Of a DNA stretch of 64,000 nucleotides, positions 5,532 through 64,000 are shown in pieces. The DNA is taken from positions 1 to 64,000 of the forward strand of contig PRDH01000026.1 in NCBI GenBank assembly GCA_003345545.1. Reading direction: 5' to 3'. Under the pieces are notes generated by a model. The model ran no database searches. It was not told the DNA's origin and was given only the letters and a program-made list of their open reading frames with translations. The position numbers and the translations under genes are program-made. Each line of letters begins with the position of its first letter. Positions within the stretch are counted from its first letter, which is position 1. The DNA comes from Candidatus Thorarchaeota archaeon. GTDB lineage: Archaea > Asgardarchaeota > Thorarchaeia > Thorarchaeales > Thorarchaeaceae.

Positions 5532-6119
5532 GTGAAGGACCAAGATGATGGCAGCAGAATTCTGAAGGCAGTACTCATAGGGGACGGAGGGGTCGGCAAG
5601 ACAAGTATTCGCCGCAATTACCTTGGTGAGGAGTTCACAGAAGGTCACATAGCGACGATTGGCGTTGACTTGGCCACTAAACGAGTCCTTTTCAACCAAG
5701 ACATTGTGAAATTCATCATCTGGGACCTTGCTGGTCAGCCTACATTCGAGAAGGTCAGAGGCCATTACTATTCAGGCTGCAATGGTATTCTGTTGGTATA
5801 CTCAGTAGTGAGTCGATCATCGTTTGAGAATGCCTCCAAGTGGCTTGTCGAGGCTTTCAAGAACATGGGCCCATTGCCACCAACTGTCATTATCGGTAAC
5901 AAGACGGACCTGAGATATTCACTTGATAAGTCGAAGTATGTGACGCCAGAGGAGGGCCAGGAGTTCACTAAGTACTTCATCAACAAGCTTGGAGTACCTG
6001 CCATTTTCCGTGAGACCAGTGCCAAGACGGGAAATGGAATCCAAGATGCTTTCACAGAGCTGCTGCGTTTGATGGATGAGGCCGAGGGAGAGAAAAAGAG
6101 CGACTACTTCATCGGATAG
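5532..6119 (+). CDS. Rab-like small GTPase
   Basis: G1 GDGGVGKT, G2 TIGVD, G3 WDLAGQ, G4 NKTD, G5 SAK; start probably GTG 5532 (frame open from 5451). Confidence 0.9.
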   Translation: MKDQDDGSRILKAVLIGDGGVGKTSIRRNYLGEEFTEGHIATIGVDLATKRVLFNQDIVKFIIWDLAGQPTFEKVRGHYYSGCNGILLVYSVVSRSSFENASKWLVEAFKNMGPLPPTVIIGNKTDLRYSLDKSKYVTPEEGQEFTKYFINKLGVPAIFRETSAKTGNGIQDAFTELLRLMDEAEGEKKSDYFIG

Positions 6120-6211
6120 ATACCTAGAATCTCGTGGCGACATCCTAGAGTTTATAAAGTTCTCAGAGTATTAACTATTGTTCATTTGATATGCAACACG
6201 GAGACGATATC

Positions 6212-8845
6212 ATGAGTGCGCAGACCACAGTCGGTGAAGGCAAACAACGCATATCCATGAAGATAGAGGGAATGCATTGTGCATCCTGCGTGGCTACCAT
6301 TGAGAAATCACTGTTGAGCCAGGATGGGGTCATAAATGCAACAGTCAACCTGTTGGATGAGAAGGCTGTGGTTGAGTTTGAATCAGGGAAGGTGAATAGA
6401 TCTGTCCTAGAGAAAGCCGTCGAATCCAGTGGCTACCGTGCAAAACGCTCCGTAATGACACTCGCCCTTGAGCCTGCTCCCAGAGATGACCAATGGAATG
6501 AGATTGTTGAGTCCATAGAATCTCTTACTGGTGCAATATCAGCGAGTGCATACTCAGAGTCGGGCCGTGTCCTTGTTGAGTATGATGAAGACCTATTGAC
6601 TCCCAAGATTGTGCGACGCCAACTGCAATCATTAGGATTCGAAATCGGAGAAAGCACGGTTTCGGGTGTTGATAGGGAAACCCTTGCAAGGGAAGAAGAA
6701 ATCAAGTATTTCGAATACCGATTTGTCTTCGCGCTCATTCTCACTATTCCGGTCATGTTCATAACTTTCGGAATCGCACTCCTTCCACCCGGATTTCCTT
6801 CGGACCTGACCATGTTCATTCTTACAACACCGATTCAATTCATTGCAGGCTATCCATTCTACAGATCTAGCTTCAGAGCACTAGTTCACGGCAAGACGAA
6901 TATGGACACATTGATTATGCTCGGAACAAGTGTTGCATACTTCTATTCAGTTGCTGCAACATTCTTTCTCACGGGCTACATGTCGTTCTATGATACGTCA
7001 GCTGCACTAGTCACATTCATACTTCTCGGCAGATGGCTCGAAGCGTATGCAAAGGGAAGAACCTCAACTGCAATACGGAGTCTGATGGATCTTCAGGCAA
7101 CAGTTGCTGTGGTCATTCGGAAGGGGGAGGAGGTTGCCATCCCTGCAGAAGATGTGGAAGTCGGAGACCTACTGGTCATCAAGCCTGGTGACAAAATCCC
7201 CGTTGATGGTCAAGTCTACGAAGGCAGGTCATCCGTTGACGAGTCGATGATCACCGGTGAATCAGTTCCTGTGGAGAAGAATGTTGGTGACCAGGTGATT
7301 GGAGCCACGATTAACAAGAACGGATTGCTCCGGATTAGAGCCACGAAGGTCGGACAAGACACTGCTCTCTCGCAGATAGTCCGTCTAGTTGAGAATGCCC
7401 AGACACAAAAACCTCCAATTCAGAGGAAAGCTGACGCAATAGCAGAGTACTTTGTGCCAATGGTTCTCATAATCGGGTTGGCTACATTTCTTGCATGGAT
7501 ATTCTTGGGCGGTGTACCTTGGGATGTCGCCCTCAATTACACAACTGCTGTCATTGTTGCAGCATGTCCTTGTGCATTGGGTCTTGCGACACCAACAGCA
7601 ATCATGGTTGGCCTTGGGAAGGGCGCTCAGAATGGCATTCTCATCAAGAACGGAGCTGGACTAGAGACAATTCCTAACATTGATACGATTGTCTTCGATA
7701 AGACAGGAACTCTGACCATTGGACGACCCGCTGTGACTGACTTCATCACGGCACCGAATGTGAAGACGGAGAACGCGCTCGCGCTCATGGCCTCTGTTGA
7801 AAAAGGGAGTGAGCATCCCCTTGCTGAGGCAATTGTGCGTTATGCAGAGGAGATGGGTGTCCATTTCACAAAGCCGACGGAATTCCAATCGCAATCTGGC
7901 CGCGGCGTGACTTCTATAATCAATGGAATAACAGTACTTGTGGGCAGCAGTCGCTTCATGAACGAAAACGGAGTCGATATCACCCAGCTTGAGACTCACG
8001 CAGAGGAGCTAGAGACACAAGCCAAGACGACGGTCTTTGCTGCGGCAGATTCGAGCGCATTGGCTCTTGCAGCAATATCTGATCCGCTCAAGTCAAGCTC
8101 AATATATGCCATTGATACTCTGAAGCAACTTGGCATAGAGATATGGATGATAACAGGGGACAAGGAGCGAACAGCGAATGCAATTGCTGAGAAACTAGGC
8201 ATTTCCAACGTCCTCTTCGAGGTCCTTCCAGGGGAGAAAGCCGAGAATGTCAAAAGACTTCAAGAAGAGGGTAAGACTGTGGCTTTTGTAGGAGATGGTG
8301 TCAATGACGCTCCTGCTCTTGCTCAGGCAGATGTCGGAATAGCTCTTGGTTCAGGGACTGATGTTTCGGTCGAAACCGGTGACATAGTCCTGGTTCGAGA
8401 TGAGCTGACCGATGTAGTATCAGGTATCGAATTGGGCCGTAGAACTGTATCAAAAATCCGCCAAGGTTTCTTCTGGGCGCTCATCTACAACATGATTCTG
8501 GTGCCCATAGCCGCAGGAGTGTTCTATCCATTCACTGGACTTGTGCTTCGACCTGAGTTCGCGGGTCTAGCAATGGCGCTGTCAAGTGTGAGCGTCGTAT
8601 CTAATGCTCTACTACTGGGGCGATTTGAACCGAAAAAGATCGCAGGTCTTCCATCCGAGGAACAGACTTTGTCGTTAGCGCCCGAGGCGGCAATAGACCC
8701 AGTATGCAAGATGGACGTGGAGATTGCCGGCGCATCACTGACTAGTGAGTACAAAGGGAAGAAGTACTACTTCTGCAGCCCGTACTGCAAGACAACCTTT
8801 GATGCCAATCCGAAGGAATATGAGAATCGAGATATCAGGGACTAA
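6212..8845 (+). CDS. copA: Cu(I)-translocating P1B-type ATPase with C-terminal YHS/TRASH domain
   Basis: HMA GMHCASC, TGES, CPCALG, DKTGT, HP, GDGVND, YN and MALSS; C-terminal DPVCKM...YYFCSPYC. Confidence 0.93.
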
Positions 8846-9280: not shown

Positions 9281-10057
9281 TCAATCTGTGCTAGACTCTA
9301 TTGGAAAGCCCTGAGGACTCCTCATCTTGTGTTTCTCGATATAGGGGATGAGTACGAACATCATGAGATAGAGGATTGGTGCTCCAGTGTTGAACTCAAA
9401 GACGCTGTTGAAGATGATGTCAAAGACGCTTGATGCCCTCATTCCAGCTAAGAAGAGAGTTATCTCCATGGAGAAGTGAACAAAGATGCCGACGAGGAAG
9501 ATATACAATATCCGCCTAGGACTGAGTTCGAATTTGTTCTTGAGCGCTAGTAATGCCAATAGAGCGTATTCAGCTATGACCGCATAGACCTCGGTAATCC
9601 GCTGATCTGTCATGACTCGTGCTACTGTCACTTTAGAATCATTGATTGGGAAAATGTTCGACAGGAGACCTATGGCAAGCCAACCTGAGAAGAGGAATAG
9701 TGACCACTTTATCCGATTGCCCCTCTCAGTCCTTGGTTGGTCTGGTCTACGCATGAACATGACCTGAACATATGAGTACTGTATCATACCATAAGTGATT
9801 GAGAAGTACACGAAGAAGCCCAAAGGCGACATCCAGATTGGCAACCCCTCAACTGTTCGAATTCCAAGAATGCTATACCAGTAGCAATAGTCAACGATGA
9901 AGTTCACCAAGATTCCAAAAAGGCCGAATACCAGCGGTATCACGAGACGCTTCTTGTAGAGTAGCAGAATCCAGAGCCCGGCCAAGACAAGATCGAAGAG
10001 CATGAAGTCAACATCAAACACTCTGATGACGATACTCTCGAATTGCATAGAATGCAT
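9281..10057 (-). CDS. multi-pass membrane protein, unknown function
   Basis: About 7 hydrophobic segments; start may be ATG 10048. Confidence 0.65.
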   Translation of the reverse strand: MHSMQFESIVIRVFDVDFMLFDLVLAGLWILLLYKKRLVIPLVFGLFGILVNFIVDYCYWYSILGIRTVEGLPIWMSPLGFFVYFSITYGMIQYSYVQVMFMRRPDQPRTERGNRIKWSLFLFSGWLAIGLLSNIFPINDSKVTVARVMTDQRITEVYAVIAEYALLALLALKNKFELSPRRILYIFLVGIFVHFSMEITLFLAGMRASSVFDIIFNSVFEFNTGAPILYLMMFVLIPYIEKHKMRSPQGFPIESSTD

Positions 10058-10160: not shown

Positions 10161-11582
10161 CTAGTATCTGTCAAGTCTGCCGGTAATCGACAACCAGAGG
10201 ACTGCGAAAGGAATTGCCACCAATGCATATCCAGGATCTCCAAATTGGATATCGGCCAGAAGAAAGGCGACCCTGATTATCAAGAATAGCAATAATCCCA
10301 TCGACATCCCGAGTGGTCTCATTCTTCCAGCGGTCCCAGCTTTTTTCATTCTCCTCCAGGCTCCTGCAAAGAGGAAGACTGGTACGAAGAAGACTAGCAT
10401 CGATGGAACTGCGAGATAGGCATAATCCATGAACGCTTGGCTGATTGGAGCTGGATATCGTTGAGTCATAAGCAACGCTGTTGGCACATAGAGGAGCAGG
10501 GGTAGTGACGCCAAGGTGCGGTATCCTGCTGCAAGAATTCCCACAGATGTGAAGACAGCCAGCGCAAAGGAAGTCGCGACGAAATCAAAGTATATCGACC
10601 ATATGTTTGGCAGAGCTTCAAAAGTACCTAGCAGACCAATCATCTGTCCTGCCGCCATAGCTGCGAAGATGACCATCAGCAATGCTGTGGGTAGCTGGCG
10701 AGTATCTCTCCACCTGCCGTAGGTGTATGAAGCTGTTCCAGTCGCTAAGGCCATAGCTATCGCTCCAAATACTGCTATAATGACAATAGAGAGATTAGAA
10801 ACGAGTTCTGCCGAAATGAGACTGGCAATGATGACAACCGGTCCTGCAAAGGTGGCACCGTAGCCCAAGAGTTCAACCGATATCTTTTGGTCGGGCCGCA
10901 AGAATGCGAATGCTATCATTGCCGGACCCATAAGTGCGAAGACAGTAATTGCGAAAATCAGCTCTATTGGCAGTATTGCATAGAGGCGTGGGACTGCCAG
11001 GACTTGCACAATCATTGCATATCCCAATGCCATGCTAGTGCTTCTTCTTGTATCATATGCTATCCATGAGAATAGAGCGGCATTTGCAGATAGAAGAATA
11101 ACACTCAATACGTTACCAAAATTGATGTAGAATTCCGCCACATTGCTTGTTCTCACGTCTTCGACGATCAGAATAGCATAGAAGACTAGAAGAAACGCAA
11201 TAAGAATCATAATGGCCATGAATACGGAGATCAAACGCTGTTTGAGAATCATCCCAGCTGCGATAGTAAGGAAGAACAACTCGACAAGAGTGAAGACGTA
11301 GAATATCGTGTAATCCCTCAGATAGGGATTGTGCAACCTGACGAAAGATTCACGAGCCCAAGGGAAATCCTCATTGTTGAGCACGAAGAATAAGAATGTA
11401 AGCAGAGCCCCAATTCCGAACACAAGTAGACCTATAGAGAAGAGATAGAGCGGTCTGAAGGCTGCCTTGATATCGGGGTCAGGGGACGCTGCCGATCGCT
11501 TGCGGCTGTAATTGATAATAGTTCCAGCGGCCACCAGCGTCGCAAGTCCAAGAAACACATATGCTATCTCGTATACTTCCAT
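10161..11582 (-). CDS. ~15-TM membrane protein, unknown function (possible duplicated 7TM unit)
   Basis: 473 aa almost entirely hydrophobic helices; GGAGGA RBS; starts 12 bp after the longin-like gene. Confidence 0.75.
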   Translation of the reverse strand: MEVYEIAYVFLGLATLVAAGTIINYSRKRSAASPDPDIKAAFRPLYLFSIGLLVFGIGALLTFLFFVLNNEDFPWARESFVRLHNPYLRDYTIFYVFTLVELFFLTIAAGMILKQRLISVFMAIMILIAFLLVFYAILIVEDVRTSNVAEFYINFGNVLSVILLSANAALFSWIAYDTRRSTSMALGYAMIVQVLAVPRLYAILPIELIFAITVFALMGPAMIAFAFLRPDQKISVELLGYGATFAGPVVIIASLISAELVSNLSIVIIAVFGAIAMALATGTASYTYGRWRDTRQLPTALLMVIFAAMAAGQMIGLLGTFEALPNIWSIYFDFVATSFALAVFTSVGILAAGYRTLASLPLLLYVPTALLMTQRYPAPISQAFMDYAYLAVPSMLVFFVPVFLFAGAWRRMKKAGTAGRMRPLGMSMGLLLFLIIRVAFLLADIQFGDPGYALVAIPFAVLWLSITGRLDRY

Positions 11583-11594
11583 TAACTTGTCCTC

Positions 11595-12029
11595 CTAGAA
11601 CACCTTCTTTCCCCACTCTTTTGCTGCGGTACCTGCTCCGCTTGTCCATTCCCGTACGCCGCGACGCACTTTCTCTTCTTCCTCAGGAGTAGTTTCACCA
11701 GATATCATCTCATTGACCAAGATGAGAACACCGTCATCTATCTCGTCGCCGCGATCTGTGATGAATTTGATGACCTCTTGATTGTGAGCATTGGCTTCCT
11801 TGTCATCGACCGAGTGCAGTGTCACAATATAGTTGTTTCCAGCTTTCCCGATAAGCAGCTTGAGTTCGCCAAAAAGGAGTTCGTTCATCTCGTTTCCGGA
11901 GATCTTCTTGATGAACATCTGTAGTGCTGAAACAAATCCACCAATAAGCGCTGTATCGCCTTCCAAGTTCTCCCATCCTACGGAAGCGATTGTTTCACCC
12001 GCATCATTGATGACGAAGATTCCATACAT
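11595..12029 (-). CDS. longin/roadblock-like domain protein
   Basis: beta-beta-alpha pattern GIFVINDAGETI...LIGGFVSALQMFIKKI followed by three beta strands, typical of Asgard longin-like proteins. Confidence 0.7.
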   Translation of the reverse strand: MYGIFVINDAGETIASVGWENLEGDTALIGGFVSALQMFIKKISGNEMNELLFGELKLLIGKAGNNYIVTLHSVDDKEANAHNQEVIKFITDRGDEIDDGVLILVNEMISGETTPEEEEKVRRGVREWTSGAGTAAKEWGKKVF

Positions 12030-12141
12030 CGTGTTAAGTCCCCGTTACCATATGCTGTCCACGTCTGCGCCGTTGAGCTTCGTGTTCAAGTCCCAGCGCA
12101 ACACCAGACTTCCATTCGTAAGCAAACTGATGCCCACGTAG

Positions 12142-12153
12142 TGGCATATGCCA
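12142..12153. promoter_or_regulatory. perfect 12-bp palindrome TGGCATATGCCA upstream of the longin gene
   Basis: Read directly in the 165-bp intergenic gap; function inferred. Confidence 0.35.
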
Positions 12154-12194
12154 TTTGTTTTCTAATGCCTCTTGAACCGCGTAGCATCTCACGA

Positions 12195-12455
12195 CTAGAA
12201 TGACTCGAACCAGCCTTTTGTCTTCTCGACTGCGTCTTTTTCTTCTTCTGTTGCAATAGCTGAAACTTCAACATCTCGAACTTGAAAGTTCGCATCAACA
12301 AAGACAACTAGAGGATGGCCTTTTCCACACTTGGCTTGTACGATGGTTGGATACCGCTTCGCTCGAGTGATAGTCAATTCATCGACTTCCACGTAGACCA
12401 GTTTACCTTCTCCACACGAGGGGCAAGCAAACGGTCTGAGTTTCACTTTCGCCAA
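12195..12455 (-). CDS. small zinc-ribbon protein (CxxC...CxxxH)
   Basis: CPSC...CGKGH..VFVDANFQVRD; TTG start after GGAG. Confidence 0.7.
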   Translation of the reverse strand: MAKVKLRPFACPSCGEGKLVYVEVDELTITRAKRYPTIVQAKCGKGHPLVVFVDANFQVRDVEVSAIATEEEKDAVEKTKGWFESF

Positions 12456-12551
12456 GCCTAGGTCTCCGTCTTGCGATTTGCTTGTGGTCCTTGATTAACA
12501 GATACTAGGCAATATTTAATGATACTGCGTACAAATCGATTCAGAAGTGAC

Positions 12552-13112
12552 TCAGTGTTGGGCTCCAGAGCTAGTCCTTGCGCTTTGCTCCGAGAGGAAT
12601 TTGCCTGCTGCCTCGAACATCTCGCGGACACCCTCCCCTGTCTTCGCAGATACTTCGAAGACTTGAGCATGGTATTGATCCGCGAATCTCTGAGCCTCCT
12701 CCTTTGTCACACCCATCCCTGGAAGACGTTCATCGATCTTGTTGCCTACAAGAAAGACATCGCAGTTGGGGACGCTGTTGTGAAGCTTCGCAATCCAATT
12801 GTCCAGCCTGTACATGGTGAACGACCTGCTGACCTCGTAGACTGCAATTCCTAGTTTTGACCCCCTGAAGTAGTCCATGACGACATCCTGGAATCTAGGT
12901 TGTCCGCCCAAGTCCCAAATCAGGAGGGTCAAGTCAGTACCTGCGACATTGACTCTCTTGGTGGCAAAGTTCACACCAATCGTCATTTTCATCTGCTGGT
13001 CGAATCGATCTTCAGTGTAACGCACAGCCAGACTTGTCTTTCCGACGCCCCCTTCTCCAATCAATGCCACCTTAAAGATTGGATTGCGTGTAATCAAGTC
13101 CTGCAGCTCCAA
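12552..13112 (-). CDS. Rab-like small GTPase
   Basis: GEGGVGKT, TIGVNF, WDLGGQ, YFRGS, NKID, SAK; start uncertain (TTG 13112 or 13097; frame open to 13169). Confidence 0.9.
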   Translation of the reverse strand: MELQDLITRNPIFKVALIGEGGVGKTSLAVRYTEDRFDQQMKMTIGVNFATKRVNVAGTDLTLLIWDLGGQPRFQDVVMDYFRGSKLGIAVYEVSRSFTMYRLDNWIAKLHNSVPNCDVFLVGNKIDERLPGMGVTKEEAQRFADQYHAQVFEVSAKTGEGVREMFEAAGKFLSEQSARTSSGAQH

Positions 13113-60880: not shown

Positions 60881-63800
60881 TTGAAACGCAACATCATACT
60901 GGTATTTCCTCTGATGTGCATCGTGCTAATCCTCATTCCATCGATATATGATCTCCCCCAGAATGCTCGCATGCTAGAAGGTCTAGATTACAGGCAAAAC
61001 GGGAACCTTCCCGTTGAGAATTATGCCGTGGTAGATAGGCAAACAGGCGTCTTTGATCCCGTTGTAGTTGAGCATATAGGGTCATCTGCCTGGGCGTCGA
61101 CATACACATCTGCGCGTACTGATGTATCACCTTCCCCAGGTTCTGCTGTGTTCATGCCTGCAGGTCCCACAGGCAATCAATACTCCTCGGATTGCGTTGC
61201 GGGTCACTTCCTAGTCGGGTCTGGAGGAAGTACTGATTTTGGATCATCTGAAGGGACACTCTCTCTTTGGTTGAAATGGGACCTCACAGCCCCCAATGGC
61301 CGCTTTTGGGGCCAACACGCCAACTTCGAAACAAGATGGACTACCAACAGACTGACTCTTGACTGGGGGAGTGATAACACACTCTTCGGGACGAAATCCA
61401 ACTGGTCAATAGATCATTGGTATTTCATCGCAATAACCTGGGATCAGACAATCAACTCTCTAGTAGCCTATTGGGGTGATGAGGAAACAGAGCCCATAGA
61501 GGATGCTTCGCTATCATGGACCGGTTCTGTTTCGGATCTACTTACTCAGAACAACATAATGAGTTCGCGAGGATCGGCAAGCTATCGTGTTGATGGACAT
61601 GTCGACGAGTTCAGATACTATTCAGTTGAAAGAAGTCTGGATGAATTGAGAATTGACTACAGGACAACTCTCACAGGCTCTGAACTTGGTCTCGTACACT
61701 ATTACCAGTTTGAAAACGACCTAGCGGATTCCGCCAGTGACACTGCTCTTGTTCAGGCAGGCAGTCACGTTTTCAGCCAAGATGTAGCCTCAGGGATTGG
61801 AGGATGGAGAGCAGAGCAAATCGAAATCGGCATTCGTGATTTGGAGCTGCTCAGTGTTCTGAACGGCTCCCTTGAGAGCGGAGTTCCAGGTACTGTGGTA
61901 GATTGGTCTGGTGACGCTAGTTGTTATCCATATGGTTGGCGAGCGCGCAGAGAGATTCTTGATACCCATGGCTACCAGCGAGTTTCATACAGCAATTCCG
62001 ACCCGAAATACTTGGTTCTTGAGAACGAGGGCTATGAAGATTCTGCTGCACCCAGCACACACCGCCACTATAATGGCACCAAGATCTACTGGTACCAAAT
62101 CGTGAATAATAGCAAGCACAATACTCAGTTTCAGTTCAGTATGAACTACCTCTATCAGAGAGGTCCAATCGGAGAGAATCATAGTGGCAATTTCAAGTTC
62201 AGTTTTCAGATCATGAATGGTTCATCTACTCTATGGAACTGGTCTGTAGACCCTACCAACATAACACAGCGCGGGATTTGGAATGAGATCGATTCCGTGG
62301 TAGTGAATTTGCCGGAGGTGCTTTCTACTTTTGAGGTAAGAGTTTGTTTTGCAGTCGACACGAACTCGAGCTATGTCGAGATCTCAGACTCAGATCCTGA
62401 TTTGGATGGCGACCCAGCAAATGGGAGGTATATCACGTTTCTAGTGGACGACATATCTCTCACAGTACTAGAAAATCTCAGTCCACAAAATGTTAATCTG
62501 CATGTCAATGTTGAACTAGTCGGCGACAATCCGATACTCGGCGACTCGGAATCTGGAACGATTTCGTTGAATCATACTTACTGGGAAAAAGCTGCAATCC
62601 CTTTCACATTCACATCAAATGCGAGTGTGTCATTTGAATACTCAGTTTGTGTTAGTCGGATGACGAAGTTCTACAACTCATCATTCTCGACGAACCTTAG
62701 TGACTTGGGCGTCGCATATGAGATTGACCTCAACCAAGATGCAGACCTATTCATCTTCACTTATATTCAATCCTACTCGGAGGCAAGAGACCTAGGCCTT
62801 ATCGTACACTATCGCGATGATTGGCGCAGCCCAACTGTGGAAGACCCCTTTGGCAACGACCTCACTGCTCAGGCATTAGTCGAATCTGATCGCTTGGAGA
62901 TTCCATCTGGTCTGGCCAGCGTCGTTGGTTGGTGGAAAATCAATCTGAAAGCACCAAACTATCTAGCGTCGATGTCGACTCAGGTACTTAGAAGCTCTGA
63001 ATCGACTTGGAAGACTGAAGCAGTTTTTCGTAGTGGCGATCAAATTCGCTGCAATGCCCTCATTGGTACTGAGTCTGAATTGACTTCTCCCATATTCGAT
63101 GTCAAGGCTGACTGGTATCTGCCAACAGGAGCTCTGTGGTCCAGCGAGACTATCGCCGAATCAAATAGCTCCTCTATTGTGAGTAATGGAACCACATTGG
63201 GACCTTACAATGCGACAATTGGAGAATGGATGGTTTCCGTATCTTGGTTCAATGGAACGGAGGTGGCATTTGGCTCGATCACATTTGAGGTACATCATAG
63301 ACTGACAATATTCGCTCAGACTCCGAGCATCGATGTTGCGCCTGGAGAACAATTCACAGCAACCATCTCGCTCTATGATCAAGACAATGGCAATCCTATT
63401 CTCGGTGATGCTCGCGTAGTTGGAAATTGGTCTTCCCTTGATATTCAATTCAATCCTAATCTTGCAAGAAGTTGGTGGGAGGCCGATTTCAACTCTTCAG
63501 TAGTGGGAACAGGTAGTTTTGTTCTCCTAGTTTCTGTCAGCATGCCCTATTATGTTGCGAACAACTGCACAATCAACGTGAACATCCCCGTTGCCGAGTC
63601 GCTATTCATGATTACCGTTAGAGCCACTCTTGTTGGAGCTCTAGCCGTGTTCGCTCTGTTCCTTGTTACTGCAATCAGTCGCCGTATCTATGTGCAAACA
63701 ATGACACGCAGGAACCTGGAACTCCTGGCCCTAAGAGGACGTTTCGAGGATGCAAGAAATCTAATCGGTATTCTAGTCATCCACCGCTCGATTGGTCTTC

Positions 63801-64000
63801 CCATTTACTCCCGAATCCTCAAGGGCGGCTTTCAAGAGTCCCTTCTAAGTTCGTTCATAACTGCGCTGTCACAATTCAGAGCGGAGTTCTCGTGGGATGA
63901 ACCAAGATGGACAGCGATACCCATTACAGAAGTAATTACCGCTGTTCAGACCGAGGTCCTCATCTGTGCCATGATAAGCGTCGAACCTGCTACGCCAAGG
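60881..64000 (+). CDS. large single-pass surface protein: signal peptide, LamG-like domain, TM helix, cytoplasmic longin-like domain; 3'-truncated and absent from the ORF track
   Basis: GAGGAGG RBS then TTG 60881 (KRNIILVFPLMCIVLILIP); GTLSLWLKW...WYFIAITWD...GHVDEFRYY LamG pattern; TM ATLVGALAVFALFLVTAI; the same frame reads through to base 64000. Confidence 0.85.
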   Translation, partial: MKRNIILVFPLMCIVLILIPSIYDLPQNARMLEGLDYRQNGNLPVENYAVVDRQTGVFDPVVVEHIGSSAWASTYTSARTDVSPSPGSAVFMPAGPTGNQYSSDCVAGHFLVGSGGSTDFGSSEGTLSLWLKWDLTAPNGRFWGQHANFETRWTTNRLTLDWGSDNTLFGTKSNWSIDHWYFIAITWDQTINSLVAYWGDEETEPIEDASLSWTGSVSDLLTQNNIMSSRGSASYRVDGHVDEFRYYSVERSLDELRIDYRTTLTGSELGLVHYYQFENDLADSASDTALVQAGSHVFSQDVASGIGGWRAEQIEIGIRDLELLSVLNGSLESGVPGTVVDWSGDASCYPYGWRARREILDTHGYQRVSYSNSDPKYLVLENEGYEDSAAPSTHRHYNGTKIYWYQIVNNSKHNTQFQFSMNYLYQRGPIGENHSGNFKFSFQIMNGSSTLWNWSVDPTNITQRGIWNEIDSVVVNLPEVLSTFEVRVCFAVDTNSSYVEISDSDPDLDGDPANGRYITFLVDDISLTVLENLSPQNVNLHVNVELVGDNPILGDSESGTISLNHTYWEKAAIPFTFTSNASVSFEYSVCVSRMTKFYNSSFSTNLSDLGVAYEIDLNQDADLFIFTYIQSYSEARDLGLIVHYRDDWRSPTVEDPFGNDLTAQALVESDRLEIPSGLASVVGWWKINLKAPNYLASMSTQVLRSSESTWKTEAVFRSGDQIRCNALIGTESELTSPIFDVKADWYLPTGALWSSETIAESNSSSIVSNGTTLGPYNATIGEWMVSVSWFNGTEVAFGSITFEVHHRLTIFAQTPSIDVAPGEQFTATISLYDQDNGNPILGDARVVGNWSSLDIQFNPNLARSWWEADFNSSVVGTGSFVLLVSVSMPYYVANNCTINVNIPVAESLFMITVRATLVGALAVFALFLVTAISRRIYVQTMTRRNLELLALRGRFEDARNLIGILVIHRSIGLPIYSRILKGGFQESLLSSFITALSQFRAEFSWDEPRWTAIPITEVITAVQTEVLICAMISVEPATPR

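Follow-up and report, generated by a model that had tools for sequence, protein, structure and literature searches.

A four-gene cassette in a Thorarchaeial contig

The window analysed here is a stretch of 64,000 nucleotides from a Candidatus Thorarchaeota archaeon (assembly GCA_003345545.1, 2.69 Mb and 93% complete; contig PRDH01000026.1, our contig C26, positions 1 to 64,000). Between 10161 and 13112, the open reading frame (ORF) listing and the sequence place four co-oriented genes on the minus strand, encoding in turn a Rab-like GTPase, a small putative zinc protein, a longin-fold protein and a polytopic membrane protein. An earlier note, made from the sequence without database searches, took these genes for a signalling module. 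Their clustering, which we call the cassette, recurs in other Asgard genomes and is far beyond chance, and we read it with some reserve as one membrane-coupled small-GTPase switch. The genes, and the ribosome binding site that joins the last two, are as follows.

12552-13097, minus strand: Rab-like GTPase gene, 181 aa from TTG 13097; the ORF is open to GTG 13169
12195-12455, minus strand: gene for the putative zinc-ribbon-type protein, 86 aa, starting with a TTG that is preceded by GGAG
11595-12029, minus strand: longin-fold protein gene, 144 aa
10161-11582, minus strand: 15-transmembrane (15-TM) membrane protein gene, 473 aa, ATG start
11591-11596, minus strand: Shine-Dalgarno sequence AGGAGG, overlapping the TAG stop of the longin gene

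The gaps in cassette order are 96 bp between the GTPase and zinc-protein genes, 165 bp between the zinc-protein and longin genes and 12 bp between the longin and membrane-protein genes, exactly as the earlier note gave them. Its strong ribosome binding site between the last two genes is the AGGAGG listed above, 8 nt before the membrane-gene ATG. The overlap of this element with the longin stop codon suggests translational coupling of the two genes, and this is the only pair in the window that is clearly coupled. The start that had been chosen for the GTPase, TTG 13112, is in frame, but TTG 13097 is most likely the true start, since GGAG lies 9 nt ahead of it and a close orthologue (L038:6953-7486) starts with ATG at the aligned position. 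The base composition of the window carries no signature of foreign DNA.

The four proteins

Pfam matches of the GTPase include Ras (2.8e-39; 134.7 bits, where the cutoff is 21.6) and Roc (2.3e-28). Its closest solved structures are Rab18 (8.7e-34), then Rab14, Rab21 and Thor-Rab 7ezb (4.7e-30), and by these relatives it can be classed as Rab-like. With all five G motifs intact (G1, GEGGVGKTS; G2, the Thr of TIGVNF; G3, WDLGGQ, including the catalytic Gln; G4, NKID; G5, SAK), it is predicted to be catalytically complete, and GxxxxGKT, the switch-I Thr, DxxGQ, NKxD and SAK are invariant across 21 cassette GTPases (alignment A4). Amongst the 20 Ras-like hits in its own genome, it scores 308 bits and the next protein 149, which points to a distinct subfamily. 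The C-terminus reads ...SSGAQH and lacks the cysteine of a prenylation motif, so that the protein should not be open to prenylation. No other cassette GTPase in A4 has a C-terminal Cys motif, although that of L044 has a single Cys near its end, and neither a prenylation nor a myristoylation signal was found in the cassette GTPase. The C-terminal Cys prenylation motif has likewise been reported absent from Thor-Rab (PMC10933270).

The 144-aa protein is assigned a longin fold by its AlphaFold2 (AF2) model (m29f2b2c7ccb7), which was built on 33 relatives and has a predicted local distance difference test score (pLDDT) of 72.6. The topology is beta1-beta2-alpha1-beta3-beta4-beta5-alpha2-alpha3 (E3-8, E13-17, H26-43, E50-53, E56-63, E66-73, H79-93, H99-109), followed by a long C-terminal helix that ends in a conserved EWGKKVF. 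A strand comes first, at residue 3, and there is no N-terminal helix such as MglB-type roadblocks have. In Foldseek searches, the longins of COPI zeta/delta, Mon1-Ccz1 and AP sigma/mu came out on top (E ~3e-4). The top 20 rows of a VIA-align search were all longins, with Z values of 7.8-10.1 over 100-113 residues; these include VAMP7, AP-3 sigma, Sec22, CPLANE, TRAPP, BLOC-3, Ykt6 and Mon1-Ccz1. Roadblocks scored lower, at Z ~7-7.8 over ~90 residues. The earlier note had let its proposal stand or fall by a longin or roadblock fold at 11595-12029, and the modelled fold and its structural matches bear that assignment out.

At the level of sequence families the 144-aa protein has no Pfam longin match above threshold. 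Fuz_longin_1 appears below threshold in four of 22 family members (best E 0.022), Robl_LC7 in three of 22 (E 0.051), and MAPKK1_Int is also sub-threshold. A Robl_LC7 or MglB-type roadblock was considered and rejected on the missing N-terminal helix, the sub-threshold Robl_LC7 matches and the lower Z values. A third longin-like subfamily, with 34-36% identity and no C-terminal Trp tail, is found at G000:C1:357-749 (L055) and at L057, where it does not adjoin genes for the zinc protein, the membrane protein or a cassette-type GTPase.

The 86-aa protein is expected to be a zinc ribbon or zinc knuckle, judging by Cys11-x2-Cys14 and Cys43-x3-His47, which are invariant in 25 cassette copies (alignment A3). 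These residues are followed by an acidic linker and a conserved C-terminal tail, K-x-x-x-W-F-x-S-F/L. No relatives were found in Pfam, NCBIfam or PDB sequences (best PDB entry 6zxw_H, E 0.17), the Pfam search giving only weak matches to OapC and a zinc finger, and the ESM Atlas holds no model of the protein. The label 'Elf1' given to it by JGI is unsupported by any family match. Elsewhere in the genome there is a weak paralogue of 78 aa (L101:6830-7066, G000:C44; E 6.8e-10). A different small GTPase is encoded 2.7 kb away, but because ABC-transporter genes intervene and the paralogue lacks the Trp tail, this locus was rejected as a cassette.

A C-terminal tail of the form K-A-x-x-W-x-x-x-hydrophobic is carried by both the longin and the zinc protein in every cassette type. 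In the longin it reads ...K-E-W-G-K-K-V-F, or DWASKML or DWAKIGL in other cassette types; in the zinc protein it reads ...K-G-W-F-E-S-F, with the variants KWMDSF and KWISEL. The tail is absent from longin-family paralogues outside cassettes. By means of these tails, the longin and the zinc protein may dock on the membrane protein, possibly with one of them on each half of it.

The AF2 model of the membrane protein (m5881d87663bb; pLDDT 93.1, predicted TM-score 0.89) has 15 TM helices. A hydropathy scan and the model together thus make exact the approximate count of the earlier note. The positive-inside pattern places the N-terminus outside and the C-terminus inside. Residues 12-218 align with residues 274-462 of the same protein (hhalign E 1e-5, probability 82%, 178 columns). 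The halves are homologous, and the protein is therefore made up of two seven-transmembrane (7TM) units, oriented alike and joined by a linker helix, TM8. The AF2 model gives the following parts.

aa 3-228 (~10899-11576), minus strand: first 7TM unit
aa 237-257 (10812-10874), minus strand: linker helix TM8, with invariant E237 and Y241
aa 264-472 (10167-10793), minus strand: second 7TM unit

The cytoplasmic loops are short, basic and highly conserved. A soluble or enzymatic domain is seen neither in a Pfam scan nor in the model, and at E <= 0.1 the protein matches no family of Pfam or NCBIfam, 7tm and transporter families included. Amongst 1.84 billion representative proteins, the family amounts to 67 clusters at E <= 0.001; its members are ~450-500 aa long or are fragments, and none is fused to another domain.

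Residues 257-472 were compared with 48,161 solved chains by VIA-align. Of the best 50 rows, 47 are G-protein-coupled receptors (GPCRs); the other three are two designed folds of GPCR-like type and a membrane protein without a title. The GPCR rows have Z values of 9.8-14.6 and a root-mean-square deviation (rmsd) of 3.5-4.8 Å over ~200 residues. The best match is ADGRL3 (8jmt_A; Z 14.6, rmsd 3.7 Å over 198 residues), and others amongst the best are a designed GPCR-like fold (Z 14.2), CD97, the sweet-taste receptor, mGlu1 and GPR156. In the ESM Atlas the neighbours of the second unit are PAQR/TrhA and the 7TM modules through which histidine kinases and GGDEF proteins receive their input; the TM-score by row is 0.69 (TrhA), whilst that by query is 0.31-0.40 across rows, which is below 0.5. 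It is unlikely that the unit is a PAQR-type hydrolase, because no His is found amongst the residues that are invariant or at least 90% conserved.

With a modelled 7TM architecture of the receptor type and neither soluble nor enzymatic domains, the protein can reasonably, if tentatively, be read as the sensor without enzymatic output of its own that the earlier note saw here. A weak match to one 7TM unit only (E ~1e-4 to 1e-8) is given by proteins of ~280 aa at L079 (G143:C153:22876-23247) and amongst its relatives in family f19, and these may be single-unit relatives of the duplicated 15-TM protein.

Gene order, spacers and co-inheritance

A longin profile was searched in 87 Thorarchaeia genomes. 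Full-length orthologues occur in ~20 of these; a match of any kind was obtained in 62 genomes, most of which have paralogues that are more distant. With the membrane-protein profile, 39 of the 77 genomes of the window's family (its own included) gave matches, as did all three of Atabeyarchaeia (f13) and three of the 19 of f12, another Asgard family, labelled Promethearchaeota. We examined 54 loci with a membrane-protein gene. The longin gene lies directly upstream of it wherever DNA is present, the zinc-protein gene lies upstream of the longin gene except in the second unit of two tandem pairs, and a cassette-type GTPase gene is adjacent in all but one of the loci that are not cut.

The window's order, GTPase-zinc protein-longin-membrane protein, is found in 20 of the 54 loci, all in Thorarchaeia. 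The order zinc protein-longin-membrane protein-GTPase is found in ~27 and is shared by Thorarchaeia, Atabeyarchaeia and f12. At two loci the GTPase gene follows the membrane-protein gene on the opposite strand, at one there is no GTPase gene within 2.6 kb, and at the remainder the cassette is cut by contig ends. The flanking genes vary between loci. Clustering of the four genes is far beyond chance, because the four families stand side by side in dozens of loci with differing flanks. Conservation of gene order was another point on which the idea of a module had been staked, and the order is kept across genera and Asgard classes.

In the cassettes that begin with the zinc-protein gene, the genes abut or overlap, and the spacer between the zinc-protein and longin genes is 0-14 bp. 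Because its genes abut or overlap, this order is probably ancestral. The window's order would then probably be a Thorarchaeial permutation in which the GTPase gene moved to the front and the spacers grew. Two elements of these spacers are as follows.

12511-12524, minus strand: TATA/B recognition element (BRE)-like element TATCATTAAATATT in the 96-bp gap between the GTPase and zinc-protein genes, ~57 nt before the zinc-protein start
12030-12194, minus strand: non-coding spacer of 165 bp between the zinc-protein and longin genes, from alignment and three-frame translation of orthologous spacers

The earlier note had allowed for separate promoters in both of the wider gaps. The proposal fares well for the 96-bp gap, where the TATA-like ATCATTAAATATT is kept in orthologues: the motif (A)ATATCATTAAAT recurs, in an unchanged position, in the corresponding gaps of genera g1 and g12, and TATCATTAAATATT is a candidate internal promoter. 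In the 165-bp gap, most orthologous spacers of the GTPase-first type carry a promoter-like motif, ctacNagaaaYgcttaWta (in shorter form gaaaYgcttaWta), ~95 nt upstream of the longin start; in the window and its closest relative this motif is degenerate. The caution of the earlier note about separate promoters is thus justified. A 52-aa ORF at 12034-12192 was rejected as a fifth gene because the orthologous spacers carry stops in all frames.

The tree distances of the four families correlate, with a Mantel r of 0.64-0.91 that is inflated by genome relatedness. A second result is independent of this inflation. In the eight genomes with two or three cassettes, the nearest relative of a component lies in another genome and not in the co-resident paralogue, in 18 of 18 cases for each of the four families. 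As each component is nearest to its counterpart in another genome, the cassettes were duplicated long ago and have been inherited as whole units.

Some loci carry more than one set of genes. L059 (G024:C3) and L060 (G022:C36) have the tandem arrangement zinc protein-longin-membrane protein-GTPase-longin-membrane protein. The second unit has its own longin and membrane-protein genes and is without its own zinc-protein or GTPase gene, an arrangement that suggests the sharing of one zinc protein and one GTPase between two receptors. Two divergent cassettes at L053 (G009:C119) face each other head to head, more small GTPase genes lie close by, and in one of the cassettes the GTPase gene follows the membrane-protein gene on the opposite strand.

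At 9281-10057 (minus strand), 103 bp downstream of the 15-TM gene and on the same strand, lies a gene for a polytopic membrane protein of 258 aa without a family. A homologue occupies the same position in L042 and L043, and another (46% identity) directly follows the second cassette of L053, in another genus; the protein is absent from most cassettes and may be an occasional fifth component. At 5553-6080 (plus strand) a second and unrelated Ras-like GTPase gene (120 bits against the cassette profile) lies upstream of a gene for a copper P-type ATPase (6191-8845), an adjacency that is repeated in L038 and L042.

The earlier note had also taken the cassette for a split counterpart of a fused receptor encoded from 60881, and this part of it is not supported. 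The ORF, which runs from 60881 to 64000 and beyond (L080:382-3882, G000:C26), encodes 1166 aa, with an N-terminal signal or anchor, an ectodomain of ~890 aa, a single TM helix at 915-938 and a cytoplasmic tail of ~230 aa. The protein is thus single-pass, and it has no Pfam domain, GTPase domain or polytopic membrane domain. On comparison with two longin-family profiles (hhalign E 0.098 and 0.064, probability <1%), the tail was rejected as a demonstrated relative; its first 45 residues have a loose likeness, which is not significant and no more than a lead, to longin beta1-beta2-alpha1. The gene is followed by one for a leucine-rich repeat protein (L080:3957-5078).

Possible function and known systems

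Longin and roadblock domains are the usual platforms of the guanine nucleotide exchange factors (GEFs) and GTPase-activating proteins (GAPs) of small GTPases (PMC3747258). Drawing on what is shown above, namely the protein folds, GTPase motifs that are all intact, a linkage that is conserved though permuted, and co-inheritance, we read the four genes as encoding one membrane-coupled small-GTPase switch, and give this a probability of roughly 0.55. The reading goes beyond these observations in supposing that the proteins associate physically, that signals run in a given direction and that there is GEF or GAP activity. The double-7TM protein would be the membrane input or docking element and the Rab-like GTPase the switch, which, because it has no lipid anchor, would reach the membrane through protein partners only. 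The longin and zinc proteins would be dedicated regulators or adaptors of this GTPase, forming a GEF/GAP platform and its cofactor, and their Trp-containing tails would dock them on the membrane protein. Whenever the membrane protein changed its state, the GTP/GDP state or the location of the GTPase would be reset, and the GTPase would pass the signal to effectors.

A number of observations weigh against a single receptor-coupled switch. Z values of 9.8-14.6 for the GPCR fold are within reach of unrelated helical bundles, which are common below Z ~13; a Foldseek search of the PDB with the whole membrane protein gave nothing at E <= 0.001 (the best entry, LYCHOS/GPR155, has E 0.017 and a TM-score of 0.30); and the N-terminal 7TM unit is linked to known folds only via its similarity to the C-terminal one. 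The longin has no invariant Arg or other obvious candidate for a catalytic residue that would mark it as a GAP. No ligand, effector or output gene was found at the cassette, where the flanking genes are not conserved, and physical contact between any two cassette proteins is putative. A complex prediction for the longin, zinc protein and GTPase, with the GTPase as partner and no controls, gave a score of 0.23 against a mark of 0.32, and counts neither way. Lastly, the genes of the window are spaced by 96 and 165 bp, a promoter-like element lies between them, and they may therefore not be transcribed together.

These gaps, which may hold separate promoters, are also what would be expected if the genes were neighbours without joint function, or had been co-retained through vertical inheritance of a chromosome segment. 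We find this barely credible, since the families stay together while their flanks change, their order has been permuted without the loss of a member, and the cassette is found in three Asgard families and has been duplicated as a unit. Linkage is, however, silent on the direction of control. The membrane protein could instead be the target, as a transporter, channel or lipid-handling protein whose activity or placement the GTPase would gate together with its longin and zinc-protein regulators, in a split analogue of the FeoB-like G-protein-coupled transporters. Transporters, too, are typically polytopic, with an internal repeat and without a soluble domain, and the invariant Glu and Tyr of the linker helix TM8 would suit such a role. 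Yet the second unit matches receptor-type 7TM domains and no transporter fold (MATE and MFS proteins have Foldseek TM-scores of 0.12-0.16), no transporter family of Pfam or NCBIfam is matched, and the repeats are parallel, whereas known transporters have inverted 7+7 repeats. A gated target is therefore possible, but we think it unlikely.

It is also conceivable that the membrane protein is a passive anchor for a lipid-less GTPase and its longin and zinc-protein platform, with the real input elsewhere. There are precedents for such anchoring in Ragulator/LAMTOR1, which serves the Rags, and in the SRX longin domain of SR-alpha, which serves SR-beta. The lack of any prenylation or myristoylation signal on the GTPase, the conserved basic cytoplasmic loops of the membrane protein and the conserved tails of the soluble partners would all fit. 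But a duplicated and highly conserved bundle of 15 helices far exceeds the needs of an anchor, and the occurrence of two or three divergent cassettes per genome, each with its own membrane protein, is better suited to different inputs. We consider a mere anchor distinctly improbable.

The nearest known system is the actinobacterial conservon or AGPS (CvnA-CvnB-CvnC-CvnD; Mfp operon), whose multi-copy operons encode a histidine-kinase-like membrane sensor, an MglB-type roadblock, a small GEF-like DUF742 protein (a GEF in Mycobacterium) and a Ras-like GTPase (PMC13343842, PMC13621833, PMC4316618, PMC11343762). Both systems combine a sensor-type membrane protein, a member of the roadblock/longin superfamily, a small accessory protein and a Ras-superfamily GTPase, in several copies per genome, and neither has a response regulator, so that the GTPase is taken as the output. 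However, the membrane protein of the cassette is a double 7TM protein of putative GPCR fold without the HisKA/HATPase of CvnA, its platform is a longin without an N-terminal helix in place of an MglB-type roadblock, its accessory protein is a putative C3H zinc protein without the DUF742 match of CvnC, and its GTPase is Rab-like where that of the conservon is MglA-like. The host is an Asgard archaeon and not an actinobacterium. By analogy, the cassette would work like a conservon; it is not a member of that group, every part coming from another family.

The pairing of a longin fold with a Rab-like GTPase is shared with Mon1-Ccz1, the TRAPP core, DENN proteins and GATOR1/FLCN (PMC3747258, PMC12290439). 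In contrast to these, the cassette longin is a single-domain protein of 144 aa with a tail of its own and has no partner of the same fold in the cassette. It also differs from the eukaryotic longin regulators in having no significant Pfam longin match, and its GEF or GAP role is putative. Amongst prokaryotes, MglA-MglB of Myxococcus and Thermus is a Ras-like GTPase regulated by a roadblock from the adjacent gene, MglB, which is a homodimeric GAP (PMC9481161); MglA is without the Rab-type arrangement of the catalytic Gln, and the pair is without a membrane or zinc protein. Closer in host is an Asgard operon for a LAMTOR1-like roadblock, a Rab-like GTPase and a DENN protein, predicted to be a GEF module (Liu et al., 10.1101/2020.10.19.343400). 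It likewise sets an Asgard Rab-like GTPase beside a protein of the roadblock/longin superfamily, but as described it includes no polytopic membrane protein and no zinc protein.

For the membrane protein, parallels exist in the HisKA_7TM kinases, the 7TM-GGDEF proteins (DgcT/CdgI) and PAQR/TrhA (PMC10760455), which are membrane-embedded sensor modules without large ectodomains. Whereas those modules are fused to a kinase or cyclase output, the cassette protein has no output domain fused to it and its genetic partners are a GTPase, a longin and a zinc protein.

LYCHOS/GPR155 has a GPCR-like domain that is coupled to the longin-containing GATOR1-Rag system. The second 7TM unit would be N-out/C-in, as GPCRs are, and its model superposes on adhesion and class C 7TM domains (Z 12-14.6); the membrane protein is coupled, here genetically, to a Ras-superfamily G protein and a longin protein. 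On the other hand, the chain has two 7TM units and an extra helix, shows no sequence similarity to GPCRs and no Pfam 7tm match, and has as its partner a small monomeric GTPase instead of a heterotrimeric G protein. Likeness in a helical-bundle fold is no proof of homology, and the match to LYCHOS (E 0.017, TM-score 0.30) is not significant. It is a long shot that true homology links the double-7TM protein to the GPCR-type receptors of eukaryotes and that, under the control of a ligand, it serves together with the longin and zinc proteins as the exchange factor of a Ras-superfamily GTPase.

Amongst structural clusters that join Asgard archaea and eukaryotes, '7TM proteins' and 'a class C GPCR' are named in a recent preprint (10.64898/2026.10.28.762692); the 15-TM family may or may not be amongst them, and the cassette is not described there. 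No published description of the four-gene module was found in the literature searched, the coverage of which was incomplete, and this does not prove the module to be new.

GTPases of the Rab-, Arf- and Rag-like kinds number in the dozens in Asgard genomes, where longin and roadblock proteins are also numerous; to our knowledge partners have been assigned to almost none of these, which keeps their cell biology out of reach of tests. The cassette matches a single GTPase subfamily one-to-one with a longin, a zinc protein and a membrane protein, and so offers partners that can be named and tested. All four proteins are small enough to express, and they are co-inherited in at least three Asgard families. 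Even if the membrane protein were an anchor or a gated target, an Asgard Rab-like GTPase would for the first time have a defined membrane partner. If it forms part of a receptor-coupled switch, then signalling from the membrane to a GTPase via a longin platform would predate eukaryotes, and the cassette would be a directly testable prokaryotic system for the origin of coupling between 7TM receptors and G proteins. Should the doubtful homology to GPCRs and the exchange-factor activity both prove true, the coupling of receptor to G protein at the membrane would already have been present in Asgard archaea, and that homology would make the cassette a surviving relative of the ancestor of eukaryotic 7TM-G protein signalling or of signalling of the LYCHOS/GATOR-Rag type.

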